Of a DNA stretch of 58,738 bases, positions 1 through 12,399 are shown piece by piece; within the stretch, counting starts at the first letter, position 1, and the number at the start of each line of letters is the position of its first letter. Source of the stretch: an uncultured cyanobacterium (lineage in GTDB: Bacteria > Cyanobacteriota > Cyanobacteriia > Cyanobacteriales > Microcystaceae); contig CAWEDJ010000005.1 of the NCBI GenBank assembly GCA_963807635.1, positions 1 through 58,738 on the forward strand, in the 5' to 3' direction. The notes beneath the pieces were generated by a model. The model was not told the DNA's origin. It did not search any database and saw only the letters and a program-made list of their open reading frames with translations. The translations under genes were made by a program, and so were the position numbers.

Positions 1-358
1 TCTTTATTGAGCAAGTATTATTACCTCAGTTATGGGCAGGGGCAATTGTCGTGATGGATAATTTGTCTGTACATTACGCTACCGTCACTACAAATCTGAT
101 TGAATCTGTTGGAGCCAAGGTTAAATTTTTACCTTCCTATTCGCCAGATTTATCACCAATTGAGTTGTGTTGGTCTAAATTAAAAGAAATTATTCGTTCT
201 GCTAAAGCTCGAACAATCGAGGCTCTTGACGAAGCTATTACTAATGCGATCAATACCATTACTGATGAAAATGCTCTTGATTGGTTCCAACATTGTGGTC
301 TCTACTTTGAGCCTTTGAGATAGCTTTTTTGTAGTGCGTTTGATCGGAAATTGCTGTA
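1..358 (+). mobile_element. IS630-family insertion sequence, right end (partial)
   Basis: A transposase C-terminus is followed by ...TTGATCGGAAATTGCTG|TA (340-358). The reverse complement TA|CAGCAATTTCC is an IS630-type end with a TA target. Confidence 0.75.
3..323 (+). CDS. IS630-family transposase (DDE_3), C-terminal part, 5'-truncated by the window edge
   Basis: Motifs VVMDNLSVH and FLPSYSPDLSPIELCWSKLK; the frame is open from nt 3. Confidence 0.9.
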   Translation, partial: FIEQVLLPQLWAGAIVVMDNLSVHYATVTTNLIESVGAKVKFLPSYSPDLSPIELCWSKLKEIIRSAKARTIEALDEAITNAINTITDENALDWFQHCGLYFEPLR

Positions 359-2045
359 ATTCTGGTTTTTTTTCTTGATTTACATCTGGTGAATCTGTTT
401 TTGTAGTCTTAGGAGTGTTGCTCTGAGATGGTTTGGAAGTGGGGATTTTAGGAGTGGAAGTCGTTTCTAGTGATTCGCTTTGTTCTTCTTCAACTGTCAT
501 CTGGGATTGAAGATACTTTTTCAGGTTGATCGGAGAAATAGGGCGCATCCGATAGGGAATTTGAATGATTTTTTCTAAGTAATCAATCCCTGATGGTTTG
601 CCTCGACGTTTGAGAACGCCTTTATAGACATCTTCTAAGGCACGGCTAATGTAGCGATCGTCAATAGCAAGAACGACGATAAATAAACTGGTTTTAACGA
701 GGAGTTGAACGGCTTCTAATACCTCTACAACTTTATGGGGAGGACAACGATCTAAATCGTCAATATAGAGGACTACTCTGGCAGGGCCTCTGGGAAAAAT
801 TTTTTGGATTGTTTCAATTTTGTTTTTAAACTGTTCTTTGTTGAAATCGCCATGATCTGGAAAAGTAAAATGTTCAGTCAAGTCGGCTAAATCACGTTGA
901 ACTTGCTGAAGAAAACCAAGTTGCGTATTGTAGGAATTGGCCTGAAGACGATCAGTAACAAAGGTATTTAAGGATGGATAAGCAGAAGAAACTCCCAATT
1001 GTTGTTGTTGTTGATTAATTTCATTTTCTAGTTTTTGTATACCTTGTAATTTTTCTTTGATTGTTTCATCTTGTTTTAAAACTTCACGATAAGCCGCTTG
1101 CGCAAAATCCTGAGCATCTCTTTGATTTTTTTGTATTTTTTCTTGGGATTCTTTCAAGTAATTTAACAATTCATTTTGTTTTTCCCTCGTTTTTTGTACT
1201 AAGTTTTTGCTGGATGCCACCACAGAGCCAAGACCGCCCGCAGTAGTCGCTAAAGGAAGAGCTGAAAGAGCGTTATTAATATTTTCAGGAAATAGTTTAT
1301 TTTTGATATCTTGCGGTAAAGTTGGATATAGTGTAATCAATAAGCCAAAACCCAATCCTAGAATAGATAGCGAATTTTTTTGTAGGAAATAAATAGGAGT
1401 TCTGAACAAGATGAGCTTTCTTAGTTCTTGTTTTTCTTTGATTAATTTTTTATTTTTTTCACTAAGTTGTTTTTTTTTCGTTTCGCGGAGTTCACTAATT
1501 TTTTTCCATAAATAATCTGTAATTTGCCCATCAGATTTAATACTTTTAAGGTCTGTATTATTTTCTTCTTTTAATTTGGATAATTTACTTAAAATAATCT
1601 CTCGATCGCGATCATTCATTTTGTTAAGTGCTTTCCAAATTTCGTGACCTCCGAGGAGCGATTTATCCTCACCTCCCAATTGTTGTTCAATTTGCTTTTC
1701 TAAGGTAAGTTGGCGATTAAATTCATATAGTATTGTTTGCATCAGACTTGACCATAAATCAGCTTTTGCATACGTCCAAGCATCAAATTCTATTTGATAG
1801 ATATGGCCGACGTAGGGAAAAAGTTGATCGGCTTCTCCCCAAGCTTGTTTTTCTGTTAAAGCTTCACTACGAATTTCATTAATGCGCTCTTTCATTAGGT
1901 GTAAAGCAAAGGATTTGCCGCTACCCCAACCCCCTAAAATACCCACAGCTAAAGGTGGTTTTAATTCACGTAACATTAATACATTCGTTAAGGCATCAAT
2001 TTCAGTTTTAATGCTAAGTTTGATCAGCCCCTTGAGCCAGATCAT
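357..2045 (-). CDS. KAP-family P-loop NTPase portion of a probable TIR-propeller-KAP gene; 3' end interrupted by IS630
   Basis: Walker A GGWGSGKS, FDAW motif, two hydrophobic segments, Walker B VVLYIDDLDRC and YLEKIIQIPY. Beyond ...KKPE the ORF reads into IS sequence. Confidence 0.85.
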
Positions 2046-3520
2046 TTTGTAATTCCTGTCCGATATAATTCTTGGGAATTGTCTTTAATCGATTTTTTAT
2101 CCATACTCCTTCAAACCAATCCATAAACCAAATATTTCTCTCTTCATCCAGTCCAAACAAATATATGTTTCCCTCCTTATTTGATTGAGCTGTAATTACC
2201 CGCAAAGGAACATCTAGACTTACAGGCCCAACCCTGTACCCATTCACCTCCAGGTAAACCGATAGCCCAAGTGTTTCCTTCTCTATCTAAAGCAAATAGA
2301 TGAGGATCATTACCAGATTGAACCGTAATTGTTTTCAAGCGAACACCTGGAGTTGAAGGCCATTGTTTCCACTCTTTTCCAGGTAAATCAATAGACCAAA
2401 TGCTTCCTTCTTTATCTAAAGCGAATAGATAGGGAGTATCACCAGATTGAACCGTAATTGTCTCGAAAAGAATATTTGGAGTTGAAGGCCAATTTTGTTT
2501 CCACTCTCCTTGAGGTAAATCAACCCCCCAAACTTTTCCTTCTACATCTAAAGCAAATAAATAAGAATCGCTACCAGATTGAACAGCAAGCTTTTTGAAT
2601 GATATATCTACATTGGTAGGATTGTATGTCTCCCATAGTCCTTTTTGGATATTTACAGTCCAAATCTTTCCTTTTTCATCTAAACCAAATAAGTCAGAAT
2701 TATCATTAGATTGGATGACAATTTCTTTTAAAGGAACTTTCGTATTTTTTGATTCATATTTTTCCCATACACCTTCTGGAAAATTTACAATCCAAATATT
2801 TCCTTCTTTATCTAAGGCAAATAGGCGAGACTCTTCAGCATATTGGAAAGCAAGACAGTTAAACTTAATTGTTTTATTTACAGAATCTTTTGAATTTAAG
2901 ATAGTTGAAATATTTCCACCTTCCACCTGACGGCTTTTGTGAATATATTCTTTCTGTAAATCTGTTGGTTTCGGGTCTTTATTTGCCCCCGCCTTTAACC
3001 AATCCTCTGCTTCGGTTAAACTTTCATTCCATAATAAAAACCCCTCTCTGCGTCCTTTGTTATCCCACTCCAAAGCTCTTACCAAAAAGCGTGTATGACC
3101 CTTAACATAGGCAATATCTAAATTCAGCGCATAAATTAATTCTTGAAAGGACTGGTCAAAATTATCTGTGTCTCGAAAAAATAACCAATTATGACTGCTG
3201 ATCGACTGATGTGCAGAATTATTCTTATCAAATAATTCGTAGGCATCCCGATAGACAATCGGCAAAATTCGTTTGTTGTGCTTCACCGCATGGTTAATTT
3301 CCTTCTGACAAACATCAGAAGCCACCGAATCAGGACTGATCACAAAAACAAAAGTATCAGACCCCTCAATCGCCTCCTCAATCTCTTTCCACCACTCCGT
3401 CCCCTTGCCGATTCCTTCCCAATCAACCCAGGTTTCTCGGTTACTTTTCTTCAGAGCCTCATGCAAAGCACGCACAAAACCTGAATCCTTACGGGAATAG
3501 CAGAGATAAACATCAGACAT
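2014..3520 (-). CDS. TIR domain + W-rich beta-propeller repeats; N-terminal portion of the same gene (frameshifts at ~2228 and ~2020)
   Basis: TIR_2 motifs VYLCYSRKD, WVDWEGI, FVFVISPDSVASDVCQKE, then six ~44-aa repeats. Removing one base at each site gives GWPVSLDVP and NDLAQGADQLSIKTEIDAL. Confidence 0.85.
2090..2863 (-). repeat. Six intragenic ~44-aa (~130 bp) repeats, consensus (I/L)xVQSxxxxxLFALDxEGxIWxxxLPxGxW
   Basis: Visible in translation; copies 3-5 are also similar at the DNA level (e.g. CCAGATTGAAC and GGAGTTGAAGGCCA recur). Confidence 0.85.
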
Positions 3521-3648: not shown

Positions 3649-4230
3649 CTAACCCAATAAAACCTGATTTGCAGTTAAACCCAATTCAGAAAAAGTTGGT
3701 GAAATAATCCGCTCCTCATCACGAAAAGCAACCTGATCATACCATCCATCAACTAGCGTGCAAACAATCACGCAATTCTGTAAAGGATCAACAATCCAAT
3801 ACTCTAAGATTCCCAAAACCGCATATTCAGCTTGTTTACTGCGATAATCCGTGACCTGAGTTGAAGGACTCACAATTTCTACCACTAATAACGGTGGTTC
3901 CTCGTTTAAATCAATCACAGCTTCCCGATCGCCTAAAGAATCCCATTGCTCAAGGGGTAACACTGTCACATCAGGAATACGAGAAGTATCCCACCTTCCC
4001 CCACGCGGCGATCGCAATCCCACAGAAAACCGTTGAGCTATCCAAGGAAGTTCTAATCGGGTAATTTCATCATCAAAAAAACGTTCCAATCGTTTCGCGA
4101 TCGCGCCATGTTTTCCTGTCCCCAAGCTCATGGGAATTAATTCTCCTTCTACCAATTCATAGCGATTATCCGTATTATCTTGATAATTAAGATATTCATT
4201 AAAGGTTAGCTTTTGATGGGTGATAGTCAT
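3649..4230 (-). CDS. Uma2 family (DUF820) endonuclease
   Basis: RYELVEG, RIPDVTV, PLLVVEIVSPS, EYWIVDP. Confidence 0.9.
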   Translation of the reverse strand: MTITHQKLTFNEYLNYQDNTDNRYELVEGELIPMSLGTGKHGAIAKRLERFFDDEITRLELPWIAQRFSVGLRSPRGGRWDTSRIPDVTVLPLEQWDSLGDREAVIDLNEEPPLLVVEIVSPSTQVTDYRSKQAEYAVLGILEYWIVDPLQNCVIVCTLVDGWYDQVAFRDEERIISPTFSELGLTANQVLLG

Positions 4231-4261
4231 CGGTAATTGGGAGTTTTTTCAATAAAAATCA

Positions 4262-4495
4262 TTAAGCTACTTTTTGTTGATAATCACCAACTAAGCCAAT
4301 ATTTTCTAACATAACTTGTCGTATCGTTTCCATTCCTCCAAATTGTTGAGAAGCATCCAATATTTCAATCCCAGCTAAATGACCATTTTTATCATAATCA
4401 ACAGCAATTCCTTCGGCTAAATGTTGAGTTGTAACAGTCGTTTCTTGAAAGGTGATACTCAACGCATCTACTTCTTTGTCATAGATGATTTTCAC
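4262..4495 (-). CDS. DUF2283 family protein (putative antitoxin)
   Basis: MKIIYDKEVDALSI...VDYDKNGHLAGIEILDAS. Confidence 0.85.
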   Translation of the reverse strand: MKIIYDKEVDALSITFQETTVTTQHLAEGIAVDYDKNGHLAGIEILDASQQFGGMETIRQVMLENIGLVGDYQQKVA

Positions 4496-4508
4496 AATGC
4501 TTGCTCCT

Positions 4509-4763
4509 TTAAAAAAAGTAAGTATAAACAGTAATAACTACTATTTCAGTGGGTTCATCCACAAAAATCGGTCGAATCTGTTTGGTTTTATAAGCTTTAC
4601 CGTTCCATATCCCATTATAGGAAAAGTCCTGATGACATTCCATCCTGTTTGAAGCGACGGGTTGCCAATCGCCATTACGAATGGTTTCCTCTACTTCAGC
4701 GATAGTAAATCCTCGTTGGGGAATATAGTTTAAGGCGTGCTGGGAAAGTCGAATCGGTTTCAC
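4509..4763 (-). CDS. DUF4258 family protein (putative toxin)
   Basis: IRLSQHA...RGFTIAEVEETI...IVVITVY; lies directly upstream of DUF2283. Confidence 0.75.
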   Translation of the reverse strand: MKPIRLSQHALNYIPQRGFTIAEVEETIRNGDWQPVASNRMECHQDFSYNGIWNGKAYKTKQIRPIFVDEPTEIVVITVYTYFF

Positions 4764-4829: not shown

Positions 4830-6566
4830 CTAACTATTTTTTTCTGAGTTAACCTCTTTCTGACTTGATCGCTCACTTTTCAACAACGGAAAAGCAATCA
4901 CATCGCGAATACTCGGTGAATTCGTTAACAACATCACCAATCGATCAATACCAATCCCTAAACCCCCCGTCGGCGGCATCCCGTACTCCAACGCAGTGAG
5001 AAAATCCTCATCCACCCCATGCGCTTCCAAATCACCCGCCGCTTTTTTCGCAGACTGTTCTTCCAAACGTTGACGCTGATCAATCGGATCAGTTAACTCA
5101 GAAAAACTATTCGCCAATTCTCGCCCGACCACAAATAATTCAAAGCGTTCCACTAAACCAGCCTTAGAACGATGGGGTTTCGCTAAAGGAGAAATTTCAA
5201 CAGGAAAATCGATAATAAATGTTGGTTGAATGAGAGTTTCTTCGACGGTTTGCTCGAAAGCTTCATTCAGTAACTTACCAATGGATTGACAACTTTCAGA
5301 AACTCCAATCCCCACAGATTCCGCCGCAGTTTTAGCCGTTGCAAAATCCGTAAATTCACTAAAATCAATCCCTGTTTTTTCCTTAACCGCATCGTGCATA
5401 GTAATGCGTTTCCAAGGAGCCATTAAATCAATTTCTGTGCCTTGATAATCGACTTTTAAAGTTCCTAAAACGGTTTTAGCGGCATTGATAATTAAAGTTT
5501 CTGTCAACGCCATCATCTCATGGTAATCAACATAGGCTTGATACACTTCAATGGAGGTAAATTCAGGATTGTGGCGAGTCGAAACGCCTTCATTACGGAA
5601 AATTCGGCCTAATTCAAAAACCTTTTCAAAGCCGCCCACAATTAATCTTTTTAGATGCAATTCAGTGGCAATTCTGAGATAAAATTCCTGATCTAAAGCA
5701 TTGTGATGGGTAATAAAAGGACGGGCTTCCGCTCCCCCAGGTTCGGATTGCAAAACGGGGGTTTCAATTTCAATAAAACCCTGTTCATCCAAATAACGAC
5801 GGATAGAAGCCGTAATTTTAGCGCGATCGCGGAAAGTTTTTCGGACATCAGGATTAACAATGAGATCAACATAACGCTGACGATACCGTTTTTCGGTGTC
5901 GGTTAAACCGTGCCATTTATCGGGCAAAGGTAATAGGGATTTCGTGAGGATGGCGTACTCTTTTACATAGACTGATAATTCACCTTTTTCGGTACGCTTA
6001 ATGCTTCCTTTTACCCCTAAAATATCGCCTGCATCCGTTAATTTTGTGAGGATGTCAAAAGGTGTTTTTGAAATAGAAACAGATTGAGGCTTACGGTTTC
6101 TCTTAGGATTATTTTCATTCGATGACACGAATGCGTCGTATATTTCTCTGCCTTTTTCTGAAGAAAGTAAGTCTGAAGCCAAAGAATTTGATAACTCATC
6201 TAATATCTCTTCTGGTTTATTCTCTTCTGGTTTATTCTCTTCTGGTTTATTCTCTTCGTTAATTCGTTTTTTCTCTAGATATAACTGAATCGTTCCTGTT
6301 TCATCCTGGAGATTAAAAAAAGCTAGTTTCCCCATGACTCGCCGCGCCATAATCCGACCTGCAATAGAAACTTCTATTTCTAATTCTTCTCCACTCGCTA
6401 AATCTATATATTTCCCCTGTAGTTCTGCTGCGGTATGGGAGGATTCCCACTGATAAGCATAGGGATTTAAACCTAATTGCTTGAGTTGAGCAACTTTTTC
6501 TAAACGGGTAGCTCGAATTTCTTCTAGAGTTGAGTGGGAATCGGCAGGATTGGGATTGGCAGACAT
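4830..6566 (-). CDS. lysS: Lysine--tRNA ligase (class II) with a loop insertion
   Basis: [55 protein letters not shown]. Confidence 0.98.
6206..6257 (-). repeat. 15-bp tandem repeat (3.5 copies) encoding EENKP in lysS
   Basis: TCTCTTCTGGTTTAT x3 plus TCTCTTC. Confidence 0.95.
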
Positions 6567-9300: not shown

Positions 9301-12300
9301 TTAATCCTGGGATAGACTACATTGTTTCTTGGCATTCTCCAACGCTTCTTTCAATTCATTAATCCGAATCGGTTTACTGATATAGTCATTCATGCCAATT
9401 TCTAGGCACTTTTCGCGATCGCCCAGCATGGAATAGGCGGTCACCGCAATAATCCAAGGAGAAGTCCAACGGGAAGACCGCTCCCGAATCAAACGAGTGG
9501 CGGTGAGTCCATCCATTTCTGGCATTTCCACATCCATAAGAATGACATCATAATCTGCGTGTTCTAGGGCCTGTAGGACTTCTTCACCGTTACTGACTAC
9601 ATCGGCACGATAGCCAAATTTTTTCAGCAACAATAAAGCAACCTGCTGATTCACCGTATTATCTTCCGCTAAGAGAATCCGCAGAGGCGCGATCGCGGGT
9701 GGCTCCTTGGGACTATCAACCTTCATCGGTGGCTTCGGAGAAGGGTGAACAACTTGTTTGGGAGTATGACCCAACGTTTGCACTAGGGTATTGTAGAGAA
9801 CCAGAGGTTGAATAGGATTTTGCAACCAAGCCGCGAACTTGACATTCGTTTGCTGCAGCCGCTCTCCAGGAGACAAATAAACCCCCGTTAACATGATCAA
9901 AGGAATTGTCTGCATATTAGGCAAACTGCGAATAGCTTCTGCCAGACTAATTCCGTCCATTTCGGGCATATTTAAATCTACAATAATGAGATCAAAAGAT
10001 TCACCTGACTTGATCCATTTCAGCCCTTCATCAGGAGATTGGGTAATTTTTGTTTCAATTTCCCATTTTTTTAACCATTCATCCAGAAAATGACAATTGA
10101 CCGAGTTATCATCTACCACGAGGATTTGATAACCTTTTAAAGAGACTTTTTCTCCATTGTCGGTCGTAGGTTCTAAATAATCTTCAAAATTAGCGGTCTT
10201 AGCCCGAATTGTAAAGTAAAAAGTCGTCCCAGGAGTCTCCTCCGCTCTCTCAGAGTTCCAATGCTTCGGCGCATTGCCTGCCACTGATCCCCCACTTTCT
10301 ACCCAGATGTCTCCTCCCATGATTTTGCTCAAACGGGAAGAAATGGCTAAACCCAGTCCCGTTCCACCATATTTGCGGGTAATGGAAGTATTAACTTGAC
10401 TAAAGGCCTTAAACAAAGAATTTTGTTGTTGGGGCGTAATCCCAATCCCCGTATCTTGAACAGCAAACTGCAAGGTATAGGAATTGTCTGCTTCATTCCG
10501 CTCTGCAACAGAGACAAATACGGTTACACTGCCCTGTTCGGTAAATTTGACCGCATTACTCAGTAAATTGACTAAAATCTGTCGAAGTCGGGTCACATCT
10601 CCGACGATTAGACGTGGTATTTGGGGATGGCAACGATAAACTAACTCTAAATTTTTGTTACTGGCCTTGGGAATGACTAAATTGAGGGCTTCTTCCACAC
10701 ACACAGAAATTTCAAAGGGATGTTCTTCGAGTTCTAGCTTACCTGATTCAATTTTGGAAAAATCGAGGATATCGTTGATCAGAGTCAGCAGATTTTCTCC
10801 ACTGTTGCGGATAACTTCGGTGTAATACTGTTGTTGGGAAGTTAGCTCCGTATCTAGCATTAAGCCTGTCATGCCGATAATGGCATTCATGGGGGTGCGA
10901 ATTTCGTGACTCATGGTTGCCAGAAAATCACTCTTTGCTTGATTCGCAGCTTCGGCGGTATGGGTTGCAGTGGCTAATTCTTCGTTTTGTTCCGCTAACT
11001 GACGACGGATTTCCCGTTCTTTTTCGAGGGACTGGGCCTGGGCGAGGGCAATTCCCACCTGGGCGGCAACGGCTTCTAACAGTTCAATTTCATTATTTTC
11101 CCAATGGTGTTTTTTTTGACAATGATGAAGGGCAAGGAGTCCATTGGGTTTTCCCTGGTAGGAGGTGCGGACGGCGATGAGAGATTTTACCTTCAGTTGA
11201 CGCAAATGATGGTTGAGGAATGAATCATTGATAACACGGGGCTCGGTATCTAAGTCATCGCAACTAATAGATTGATCTTGGCTCAGAATTTGCTGAATAT
11301 AGTGACTTTGATGAAAGTGCAGTTCCATTTTTAGCATGGAGCCGGAGGTGGCAGTTAAGTATTCTGCGACACAACGAATATGGGGGTCGGGGTTTTCTAC
11401 ATAGGTATGAATTACACAACGATCTACTCCAAAGGTTTTGCCGATTTGGTTAACCGTTGTTTGAAAAATATGTTGACTGTCTAAGCTACTGCGAATTTCT
11501 TCGGTAATATTTTTGAGTAGAACTGTCCACTGTAATTTTTGTTCTAAGAGTCTTTCGGCTTGTTTTTTGGCTGAAATGTCTCGATAAAGCCACAGATGTC
11601 CGAAATAGTCTCCTTCAACAAAAATAGGGACATAATCCCGTTCAAAAACTTGCCCATTGCGTAACAAAATTTCTTCATTCGTAATAACTTCTCTCCTTTT
11701 GGCGATCGCGTCCAAGGATTGCTTAAATTGATGGGGATTGCTAAAAAGAGATTGAATTTGGGACGATAACAGACAAGCGCTTAACCCAACGAGATTTTCT
11801 GGAGCGGTCGTGATCCTAAACAAATGACAAAATTCGGGATTGACCAAAATAATGTTGCCCGATTCATTTTCGACCAGAACCCCTGCTTGCAAATTTTGGA
11901 GCAATGTACTTAAACGAGAAGTAGTTGTGCGAAGAATTTGTTCGGCTTGACGCAGGTCTGCTTCGTTTTTTTGTTGGACAATTAAGGCTTGCGCTAGGCG
12001 ATCGCGGGTTTGTTTCAATTCCAGATGGGTTTTGACCCTAGCCAATAATTCAGGAGGATTAAAGGGCTTGGTGACATAATCCACAGCCCCCCGTTCAAAG
12101 GCTTGTAAAAGATGAAGTTTCTTGCTACTTGCTGTCAGAAAGATCACGGGAATATCCGCCGTTTTAGGATTAGCTTTTAAACGGGAGCAAACCTCTAATC
12201 CGTCAATTTCAGGCATCATAAAATCCAAAAGAATCAAATCGGGGCGAGCCGACTCCACTCGATCCATCACATCTCGTCCCGCCGTCACAAAGGTTGTTCC

Positions 12301-12399
12301 ATAACCAAGGCTTTCCAATAATTCCGTAATGAGATGAATATTGCTAGAGATATCATCTACAATAAGAATAAGAAAATCTTCTGGGTTAAATAATTCCAT
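9301..12399 (-). CDS. Hybrid sensor histidine kinase (REC-PAS-GAF-HisKA-HATPase-REC-REC)
   Basis: [43 protein letters not shown], two C-terminal receiver domains. Confidence 0.95.

Follow-up and report, generated by a model that had tools for sequence, protein, structure and literature searches.

What is encoded at one end of a cyanobacterial contig where a TIR domain, a tryptophan-rich repeat and a KAP nucleoside triphosphatase (NTPase) are spread over three adjacent open reading frames (ORFs) of the minus strand? The window analysed here (58,738 nucleotides) is the entire contig CAWEDJ010000005.1, or C5, of assembly GCA_963807635.1 from an uncultured member of the Microcystaceae; the assembly comprises 107 contigs and 4.03 Mb, is 93.7% complete, and has 40.9% G+C and 4738 GCGATCGC sites, a mark of cyanobacterial DNA. 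An earlier, sequence-only reading of positions 357..3520 had joined the three ORFs into one hidden gene that needed only polishing. Its observation is borne out: the ORFs are pieces of one ancestral gene, with the domains it named, and intact homologues read straight through them. Its picture of a gene that still works does not hold. I consider it probable that the locus is the remnant of one TIR/six-bladed propeller/KAP NTPase gene, broken by two one-base insertions and by an insertion sequence (IS) of the IS630 family, and that it is most likely a pseudogene; for its intact relatives I propose a mechanism below. Established in this explanation are how the gene is built and where it is broken, which domains it has, and that intact relatives exist. 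In this IS-rich genome the locus should be annotated as one pseudogene, not as three genes.

The intact homologues that the sequence-only reading had suggested looking for do exist. A search with the repeat region over 2839 candidate proteins of 784-2235 amino acids (E <= 0.001) gave two proteins, P0001 (1366 amino acids, repeats 93% identical) and P0002 (1283 amino acids, 66%), both with Pfam TIR and KAP domains. The three window pieces tile both of them end to end without overlap. In a three-frame translation the first frame loses sense at ...GEWVQGW, the second goes on with PVSLDVPLRVITAQSNKEGNIYLFGLDEERNIWFMDW... to ...NDLAQGADQT and a stop, and the third takes over with LSIKTEIDALTNVLMLRELKPPLAVGILGGWGSGKSF...; each break is a +1 frameshift caused by a single extra base. 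P0001 and P0002 cross both sites in frame, reading ...GWPVGLDV... at the first and ...NDLAQGVDQLSIKTEIDAL... at the second, where both have DQL.

Related-strain contigs from four metagenome runs (X1, X2, X4 and X8) give the same answer at the level of DNA. The first site is covered by X2 only, not by X1, X4 or X8, and one X2 contig omits a base at 2227. The second is not covered by X2, and the sole X8 contig ends at about 2021 and is uninformative; one X1 contig and one X4 contig each omit a base at 2019. The two corrections proposed from the letters alone, removal of one base at 2227-2229 and of one at 2019-2021, were therefore exactly right. The first restores WPVSLDV where P0001 has GWPVGLDV, and the second restores the NDxxxGxDxL motif before Walker A, whose N-D-x3-G-x-D core stays conserved at 90% or more across 34 aligned KAP relatives. 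Thus one frameshift falls within a propeller blade and the other within a conserved motif.

The gene is also cut short, a point absent from the sequence-only reading. Its frame runs to ...DVNQEKKPEL and then, beyond window position 357, enters antisense sequence of an IS630-family element, which is not part of the gene. At least 13 other full-length copies of this 1066-bp element occur in the genome at 99.2-99.7% identity, with partial copies at contig ends, and homology among the copies ends at window 358-361, at a TA; TA is the usual target of IS630 elements. An X2 related-strain contig has different, non-IS sequence before 357. The same peptide ends at residue 1132 of the 1366 of P0001, so that 234 codons are missing from the window copy relative to that protein. 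The missing part holds the ...SPRTGKRLIN... helix with which the Pfam KAP profile ends (P0001 position 1197) together with a C-terminal domain; a complete KAP domain, with its SPRxxKRLIN helix and the conserved domain that follows, is therefore not present here. In that C-terminal domain P0001 and P0002 share 86% identity, compared with 67-68% in TIR and propeller, and many columns of the domain are at least 90% conserved in the 34 aligned relatives. The last 193 residues of P0001, searched against the genome itself, gave no match at E <= 1. Four contig ends with the opposite end of the element were considered as the home of the missing C-terminus and rejected, the sequence beyond the element being unrelated. 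The gene is truncated whether or not the frameshifts are real, and, once cut by the IS, was free to accumulate them.

Are the frameshifts real, then, or did the assembly create them? I judge them probably real, because there are few indel errors elsewhere in the assembly. When the 13 other full IS copies are aligned to the reference copy, 11 need no gap. Frames of at least 100 amino acids cover 84.5% of the genome and 1429 frames reach at least 300, which is ordinary for a genome of this size. A control stretch of 11.5 kb beside the gene (lysS, def, hybrid kinase, thrS) was compared with the same related strains; 12 of its 40 indels were listed, and all 12 lie in intergenic spacers, none in an ORF. 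Elsewhere inside the gene the listed indels compensate each other in pairs, have lengths divisible by three, or stem from a single more distant relative. Were both frameshifts nevertheless homopolymer errors, the strain would have a frame that stays open from the start of the TIR domain up to the junction with the IS, and a truncated protein of about 1055 amino acids, possibly expressed. Several facts lean that way and so weigh against a doubly shifted gene: both extra bases lie in short, error-prone homopolymers of three bases, just 208 bases apart; the broken ORFs were seen on this single contig only; and the best public run holds 0.42 of the sampled assembly words, with no RNA run listed among the runs so matched. 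Given the low indel noise I hold this account to be unlikely, and even if it were true the IS would still have removed a conserved domain. Against the deletion itself it can be said that the C-terminal piece may have gone unfound because the assembly is incomplete, rather than having been lost. It is far less probable still that the pieces are functional as they stand, whether each of the three is a gene in its own right (TIR-propeller, a small protein and KAP) or two programmed +1 frameshifts yield a single protein. All three frames are open and ORF3 has an in-frame ATG at 2045, but neither site is shifted in the intact homologues or the related strains, the breaks lie inside a blade and inside the N-D-x3-G-x-D motif, the middle ORF matches no family and has as its start a GTG within blade 5, and the tail of ORF3 is IS antisense sequence. 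A gene broken by frameshifts and IS thus remains the best account, and the notion of a hidden working gene that needs no more than polishing is not supported.

Features of the broken TIR-propeller-KAP gene and of the adjoining insertion sequence (window positions; residue numbers of ORF1 for the TIR rows and of the KAP piece for the KAP rows)
Feature	Position	Strand	Remarks
ORF1	3520-2177	-	447 amino acids
ORF2 (middle)	2247-2014	-	77 amino acids
ORF3	2045-180	-	621 amino acids
TIR domain	3134..3520	-	start codon 3520-3518; residues 1-130
Glu74 codon	3301-3299	-	in C-x-x-E motif, C71-Q-K-E74
Linker, about 85 residues	2879..3133	-	residues ~130-210; accompanies this TIR type in many cyanobacterial proteins
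Blades 1-5, first frame	2230..2878	-	93% identity to P0001 residues 208-431
Frameshift site 1	2227..2229	-	GGG, against GG in relative
Blade 6 and connector with N-D-x3-G-x-D, second frame	2020..2226	-	88% identity to P0001 residues 432-509; LFGLD anchor
Frameshift site 2	2019..2021	-	AAA, against AA in relatives
KAP NTPase piece, third frame	359..2018	-	...LSIKTEIDAL to ...DVNQEKKPEL; IS cut at P0001 residue 1132
Walker A, GGWGSGKS	1911..1934	-	G29, W31, G32, G34, K35, S36 invariant in 34 aligned relatives
Two hydrophobic helices, predicted membrane hairpin	1215..1373	-	residues 216-234 and 250-268
Walker B strand, VVLYIDDLDR	747..776	-	D420, D421, L422, D423, R424 invariant; modelled strand E413-420
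IS630-family element	1..358	+	right-hand 358 bases of 1066 bp; contig begins inside the element, which ends at TA 357-358
Transposase C-terminus	3-323	+	Pfam DDE_3 (IS630-type), E 5.9e-20

What kind of protein did the gene encode? At its N-terminus, Pfam TIR_2 (PF13676) matches residues 4-129 of ORF1 over the full profile (positions 1-122; E 6.5e-25, 88.4 bits against a cut-off of 28). The CxxE glutamate noticed earlier, Glu74, aligns with the glutamate of the W/C-x-x-E-L motif in solved TIR chains (CWDEL in 9mud_K, Cat1; TEYEL in 7uxr_A). The glutamate of the W/C-x-x-E motif is catalytic in NAD+-cleaving TIR domains. The TIR domain is followed by a putatively helical linker, and the two together (residues 1-200) match as a unit in 47 genomes out of 200 others from the order, mostly within ORFs of 900-1800 amino acids, and in none of 10 genomes of the same family; in P0002 the linker is absent and appears as an alignment gap. 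Many cyanobacterial ORFs of 1000-1800 amino acids carry two or three such TIR-plus-linker modules in tandem, for example G118:C288:41202-43004. The present genome also has a paralogue on contig C69 (locus L002, 3-2124, minus strand) that is 73% identical across TIR and linker, runs into a hydrophobic segment and stops after 264 amino acids, with WD40 ORFs next in other frames. It is perhaps a second broken TIR-WD40 gene, or else a mis-assembled repeat.

The middle of the protein was read as six W-rich repeats of about 44 residues, and this stands. The repeats occupy approximately residues 214-480, with LF[AG]LD anchors spaced 44, 44, 44 and 43 in ORF1 and the sixth anchor in ORF2; pairs of blades score 75.9 on average, whereas shuffles give -10.8 +/- 2.4, and 16 of 293 residues are tryptophan. 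Blades 3-5 are visible in the DNA as a tandem repeat of period 129 at 2240-2584 (Tandem Repeats Finder). An AlphaFold model of the corresponding stretch of P0001, built from 10 aligned rows, has six four-strand blades (predicted local distance difference test, pLDDT, 80.1; predicted template modelling score, pTM, 0.80). When the model was compared with 48,161 chains by VIA-align, six-bladed propellers came out on top: AofleA (Z 23.7), AAL (23.2), RSL (23.0) and the PknD sensor (22.6), followed by SapL1 (22.3), fishelectin (22.1) and tectonin 2 (20.8). As to the suggested lectin-type propeller of the tectonin or AAL kind, AAL-type, RSL and tectonin folds do rank among the best, but these sit within a continuum, since the ranking shades without a break into NHL, TolB and sialidase propellers at Z 19-22. 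Foldseek against the Protein Data Bank (PDB) returned generic propellers only (UVR8/RCC1, PLL, Pizza6). Protein-language-model neighbours in tachylectin and tectonin clusters (0.87-0.91) are leads only.

No Pfam family exceeded its cut-off on the propeller (Hyd_WA, E 0.0012, 19 bits against 21), the 77-residue middle ORF had no Pfam match, and WD40-type profiles did not match the window propeller even at E <= 10. The propeller is an unclassified repeat. Its family is rare: among 1.84 billion representatives 198 clusters match at E <= 0.001, a number that falls to 21 at E <= 1e-10, and in the 35 top matches scanned the union of this repeat with TIR and KAP occurs in P0001 and P0002 alone. In the nearest relatives the repeat, which has no Pfam name, stands beside Vps62 (Pfam) and trypsin-like domains; Trypsin_2 (Pfam) is named for the more distant P0012, P0016 and P0023. 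To the eye, the N-terminus of the near relative P0007, which has no Pfam family, looks peptidase-like, and P0011, also without a family match, looks phospholipase-like. Searches with the propeller found seven weak loci in species-genome contigs (24-41% identity, none cyanobacterial), at least five weak loci in metagenome contigs and, across the phylum, only weak matches of about 25% identity in 14 of 400 other genomes. One of the latter was inspected and judged unrelated; it is a secreted protein that, to the eye, resembles a propeller of the Reg_prop (two-component regulator) type.

The C-terminal part is a KAP NTPase with two hydrophobic segments, as had been claimed. Pfam KAP_NTPase (PF07693) matches ORF3 at E 6.1e-32 (111.5 bits against a cut-off of 20), and both Walker motifs are present. 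Between them lies an insert of about 320 residues that holds both hydrophobic segments, with Kyte-Doolittle means over 19 residues of 1.65 and 1.41; the first segment is stronger in homologues (2.1-2.8). Hydrophobic segments lie between the Walker motifs in the window copy and in all seven relatives scanned, although P0002, P0152 and P0153 have one distinct segment at a threshold of 1.2. In the model of the KAP piece both hydrophobic segments are helical, and long helices (163-214, 273-316 and 318-341; pLDDT about 50-70) flank the pair. A PDB sequence search with the KAP piece gave no match. The first 790 residues of P0001 contain no hydrophobic segment; TIR, propeller and P-loop should therefore lie on the same side of the membrane, presumably the cytoplasm.

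Compared segment by segment, the window gene is a mosaic. Identity to P0001 is 76% for TIR and linker, 93% for blades 1-5, 97% for the Walker A segment, 35% for the central insert and 95% for the Walker B segment. The corresponding values for P0152, a PG-binding-WD40-KAP protein, are 27% (a local match over 26% of the segment), 26% (local, 29% of the segment), 98%, 84% and 78%. The central KAP cassette, window 798-1757, is thus only 35% identical to its counterpart in the TIR-propeller relatives, and the pattern points to an exchange of cassettes between paralogous KAP genes.

Is the layout as novel as the sequence-only reading supposed, which knew of no named system arranged in this way? It is not. 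A search with the KAP piece retained 1254 proteins of 987-2815 amino acids at E <= 0.001 among 7996 scored, and those with names are nearly all cyanobacterial. Of the 120 KAP matches listed, six have TIR_2 (P0001, P0002, P0153, P0155, P0167 and P0253); other N-terminal modules in the same KAP subfamily include WD40 (many), caspase, nSTAND1, PG_binding_1, PNP_UDP_1, Trypsin_2 with VMAP-M1, and Macro. P0153 (1396 amino acids) has TIR at 16-134, WD40 at 212-549 and KAP to 1257, and P0155 (1047 amino acids) has TIR at 20-140, WD40 at 158-261 and KAP at 274-921. Since both share the domain order of the window gene, the effector-propeller-KAP layout is a common cyanobacterial theme, and KAP proteins with repeats and effectors are discussed in PMC8195603 and PMC13001434; the kind of propeller alone is unusual. 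The TIR-WD40-KAP proteins, like sister forms whose N-terminus is a caspase, trypsin, PNP or PG-binding module, have a KAP domain of the same subfamily (Walker B part 63-75% identical) and share with the window gene family the N-D-x3-G-x-D motif, the hydrophobic insert and the C-terminal domain. TIR-WD40-KAP proteins likewise run from an N-terminal TIR through a beta-propeller to KAP. In the sister proteins, however, the propeller is WD40 (E 1e-24 to 1e-77), whereas the window gene has six blades of a roughly 44-residue repeat that no Pfam family covers. The sister proteins carry database names only, such as 'P-loop NTPase fold protein'; a literature search found no experimental work on these proteins, nor the terms 'TIR-KAP', 'KAP-TIR' or 'TIR-WD40'; in Kaur et al. 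(2020) the letters 'KAP' turn up solely within names of authors among the references. The subfamily is patchy: at E <= 1e-40 it was matched in 9 genomes out of 200 others from the order. The sole match from the same family (genome G133) is a 1006-residue caspase-KAP gene among an integrase, two transposases and a PIN gene.

How does this protein compare with known defence systems? Kaur et al. (2021) describe KAP ATPases as able to replace STAND NTPases in effector-associated conflict systems (PMC8195603), and the introduction of the Tmn preprint, with reference to Aravind et al. (2004), describes repeats and accessory domains as frequent in KAP ATPases and credits these parts with presumed sensing and effector roles (PMC13001434). 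Transmembrane segments inserted within the P-loop domain are a trait of the family according to papers that cite Aravind et al. (2004). Doré et al. (2024) list KAP NTPases with N-terminal TIR or peptidase domains among the targets of diversity-generating retroelements (PMC10907252). An experimental parallel comes from a 2026 PLoS Biol study, in which phage protection is conferred by a KAP protein of Enterococcus faecalis (EF_KAP) and by three metagenomic KAP fusions; it depends on both the Walker B motif and the fused region, and EF_KAP is reported not to work through abortive infection (PMC13552941). As in the TIR-propeller-KAP proteins, where the membrane helices are predicted, a single polypeptide holds the KAP NTPase, with a transmembrane helix inside its NTPase domain, and a further region fused to it; by the description in that paper, on which the likeness rests, they come from Firmicutes, and their fused region is C-terminal, of unknown fold and without TIR or propeller (PMC13552941).

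PifA of the F plasmid and QatA are KAP-family NTPases as well, PifA being one without transmembrane helices according to the Tmn preprint (PMC13001434). PADLOC profiles match the window protein in the Walker B region over about 100 of 600-700 positions (QatA, E 1e-18; PifA, E 1e-8 to 1e-13), and NCBIfam QatA gives 66.7-73.3 bits against a cut-off of 600 over about 100 of 628 positions. No QatBCD genes are found among the window neighbours, so this is not a Qat system. ThsB is matched at the level of the TIR domain only (PADLOC, E about 1e-8; NCBIfam ThcB4, 25.9 bits against 220), and Pfam names no ThsA-like SIR2/SLOG-type domain among the annotated window neighbours; nor, then, is it Thoeris. 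The protein belongs to none of the QatA, PifA, PDC-S20 and ThsB systems. With the STAND or NLR-like antiviral ATPases (Avs, bacterial NACHT) it shares the logic of effector, NTPase switch and repeat sensor in one chain, but those have a STAND NTPase in the order effector-NTPase-sensor, whereas here a KAP NTPase, predicted to be membrane-inserted, follows in the order effector-sensor-NTPase; no STAND profile matched the window pieces, P0001 or P0002. The likeness to AofleA and AAL fucose lectins, RSL, tectonin 2, fishelectin and the PknD sensor is one of predicted fold (Z 20.8-23.7; root-mean-square deviation 2.2-3.3 over 209-260 residues), sequence identity being 5-12% (10-11% for AofleA/AAL), and the propeller here is predicted to be cytoplasmic.

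From the domains I infer a working model for the intact relatives, in which the ligand, the NTP switching, the NADase activity and the defence role are all proposals. The protein would be anchored at the inner face of the membrane by the hydrophobic hairpin inserted in its NTPase, and TIR, propeller and P-loop would all be cytoplasmic, because no hydrophobic segment separates them. The propeller is predicted to bind a trigger, for example a phage molecule or one bearing a glycan. The KAP NTPase might then switch or oligomerise, and the TIR domains so clustered could cleave NAD+, with the result that growth of the infected cell would stop. On such a model P0001 and P0002 may be single-chain, membrane-tethered innate-immune receptors built on KAP rather than STAND, in which an intracellular lectin-like propeller senses a ligand of the invader and fires a TIR NADase, the swapped KAP cassette reflecting diversification by module exchange; I offer this as a possibility only, and tentatively.

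An anti-phage role for the TIR-propeller-KAP protein is putative, and part of the record speaks against it. There is no defence island around the gene, whose neighbours are lysS, def, thrS, a hybrid kinase and an ABC transporter; the matches to QatA, PifA, PDC-S20 and ThsB are partial and far below cut-offs; and the model of the KAP piece is of middling confidence (pLDDT 66.8, pTM 0.53, with the P-loop core at 80-90). It may be that the intact family is not anti-phage at all but serves colonial or filamentous cyanobacteria as a device for membrane signalling, programmed cell death or recognition of kin and self, with the TIR domain as an adaptor or signal generator rather than a killer that depletes NAD+. 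Neither the window nor the searches provided a link to phage, the neighbours in the window are housekeeping genes, and comparative-genomic papers place TIR, caspase and NTPase proteins of this sort in broader 'conflict/apoptosis-like' systems of multicellular prokaryotes (PMC8195603, PMC10907252). I nevertheless find this doubtful: the TIR domain keeps the glutamate that aligns with enzymatic TIRs, phage defence has been demonstrated for KAP fusion proteins (PMC13552941), and the distribution is patchy, with one relative among mobile elements.

Some further observations concern the surroundings of the gene and the IS. A Uma2-family endonuclease-like gene and a DUF2283/DUF4258 pair lie at 3649-4763, between the TIR gene and lysS; a related-strain contig skips 4249-4875, and the Uma2/DUF block is thus strain-variable. 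Inside lysS (4830-6566), related-strain contigs skip about 203 bases at 6051-6255 and have 32-43 other letters instead, so that the lysyl-tRNA synthetase of the window carries a strain-specific insert with EENKP repeats. Within the hybrid histidine kinase gene (9301-12399), 412 bases at 11550-11963 are replaced by 25 letters in related-strain contigs. At least 14 full copies of the IS exist, on contigs C75, C93, C79, C67, C40, C29, C42, C41, C39 (three copies), C73, C98 and C54, and in so IS-rich a genome other genes may be interrupted too. The copy on C75 (region G000:C75:70808-72865) itself sits in another short repeat of about 360 bases, which occurs on at least eight other contigs (C54, C34, C23, C90, C59, C64, C31 and C61).

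Experimental proof that KAP NTPases take part in phage defence is only recent. In the cyanobacteria they form a very large family, with more than 1000 long proteins matched here, whose N-terminal effector and propeller modules are interchangeable and whose sensor precedes the NTPase, instead of following it as in NLR-like proteins. Within this family the TIR-propeller-KAP proteins would join an effector with a simple read-out, loss of NAD+, to a small candidate sensor, and so bring the family within reach of experiment.

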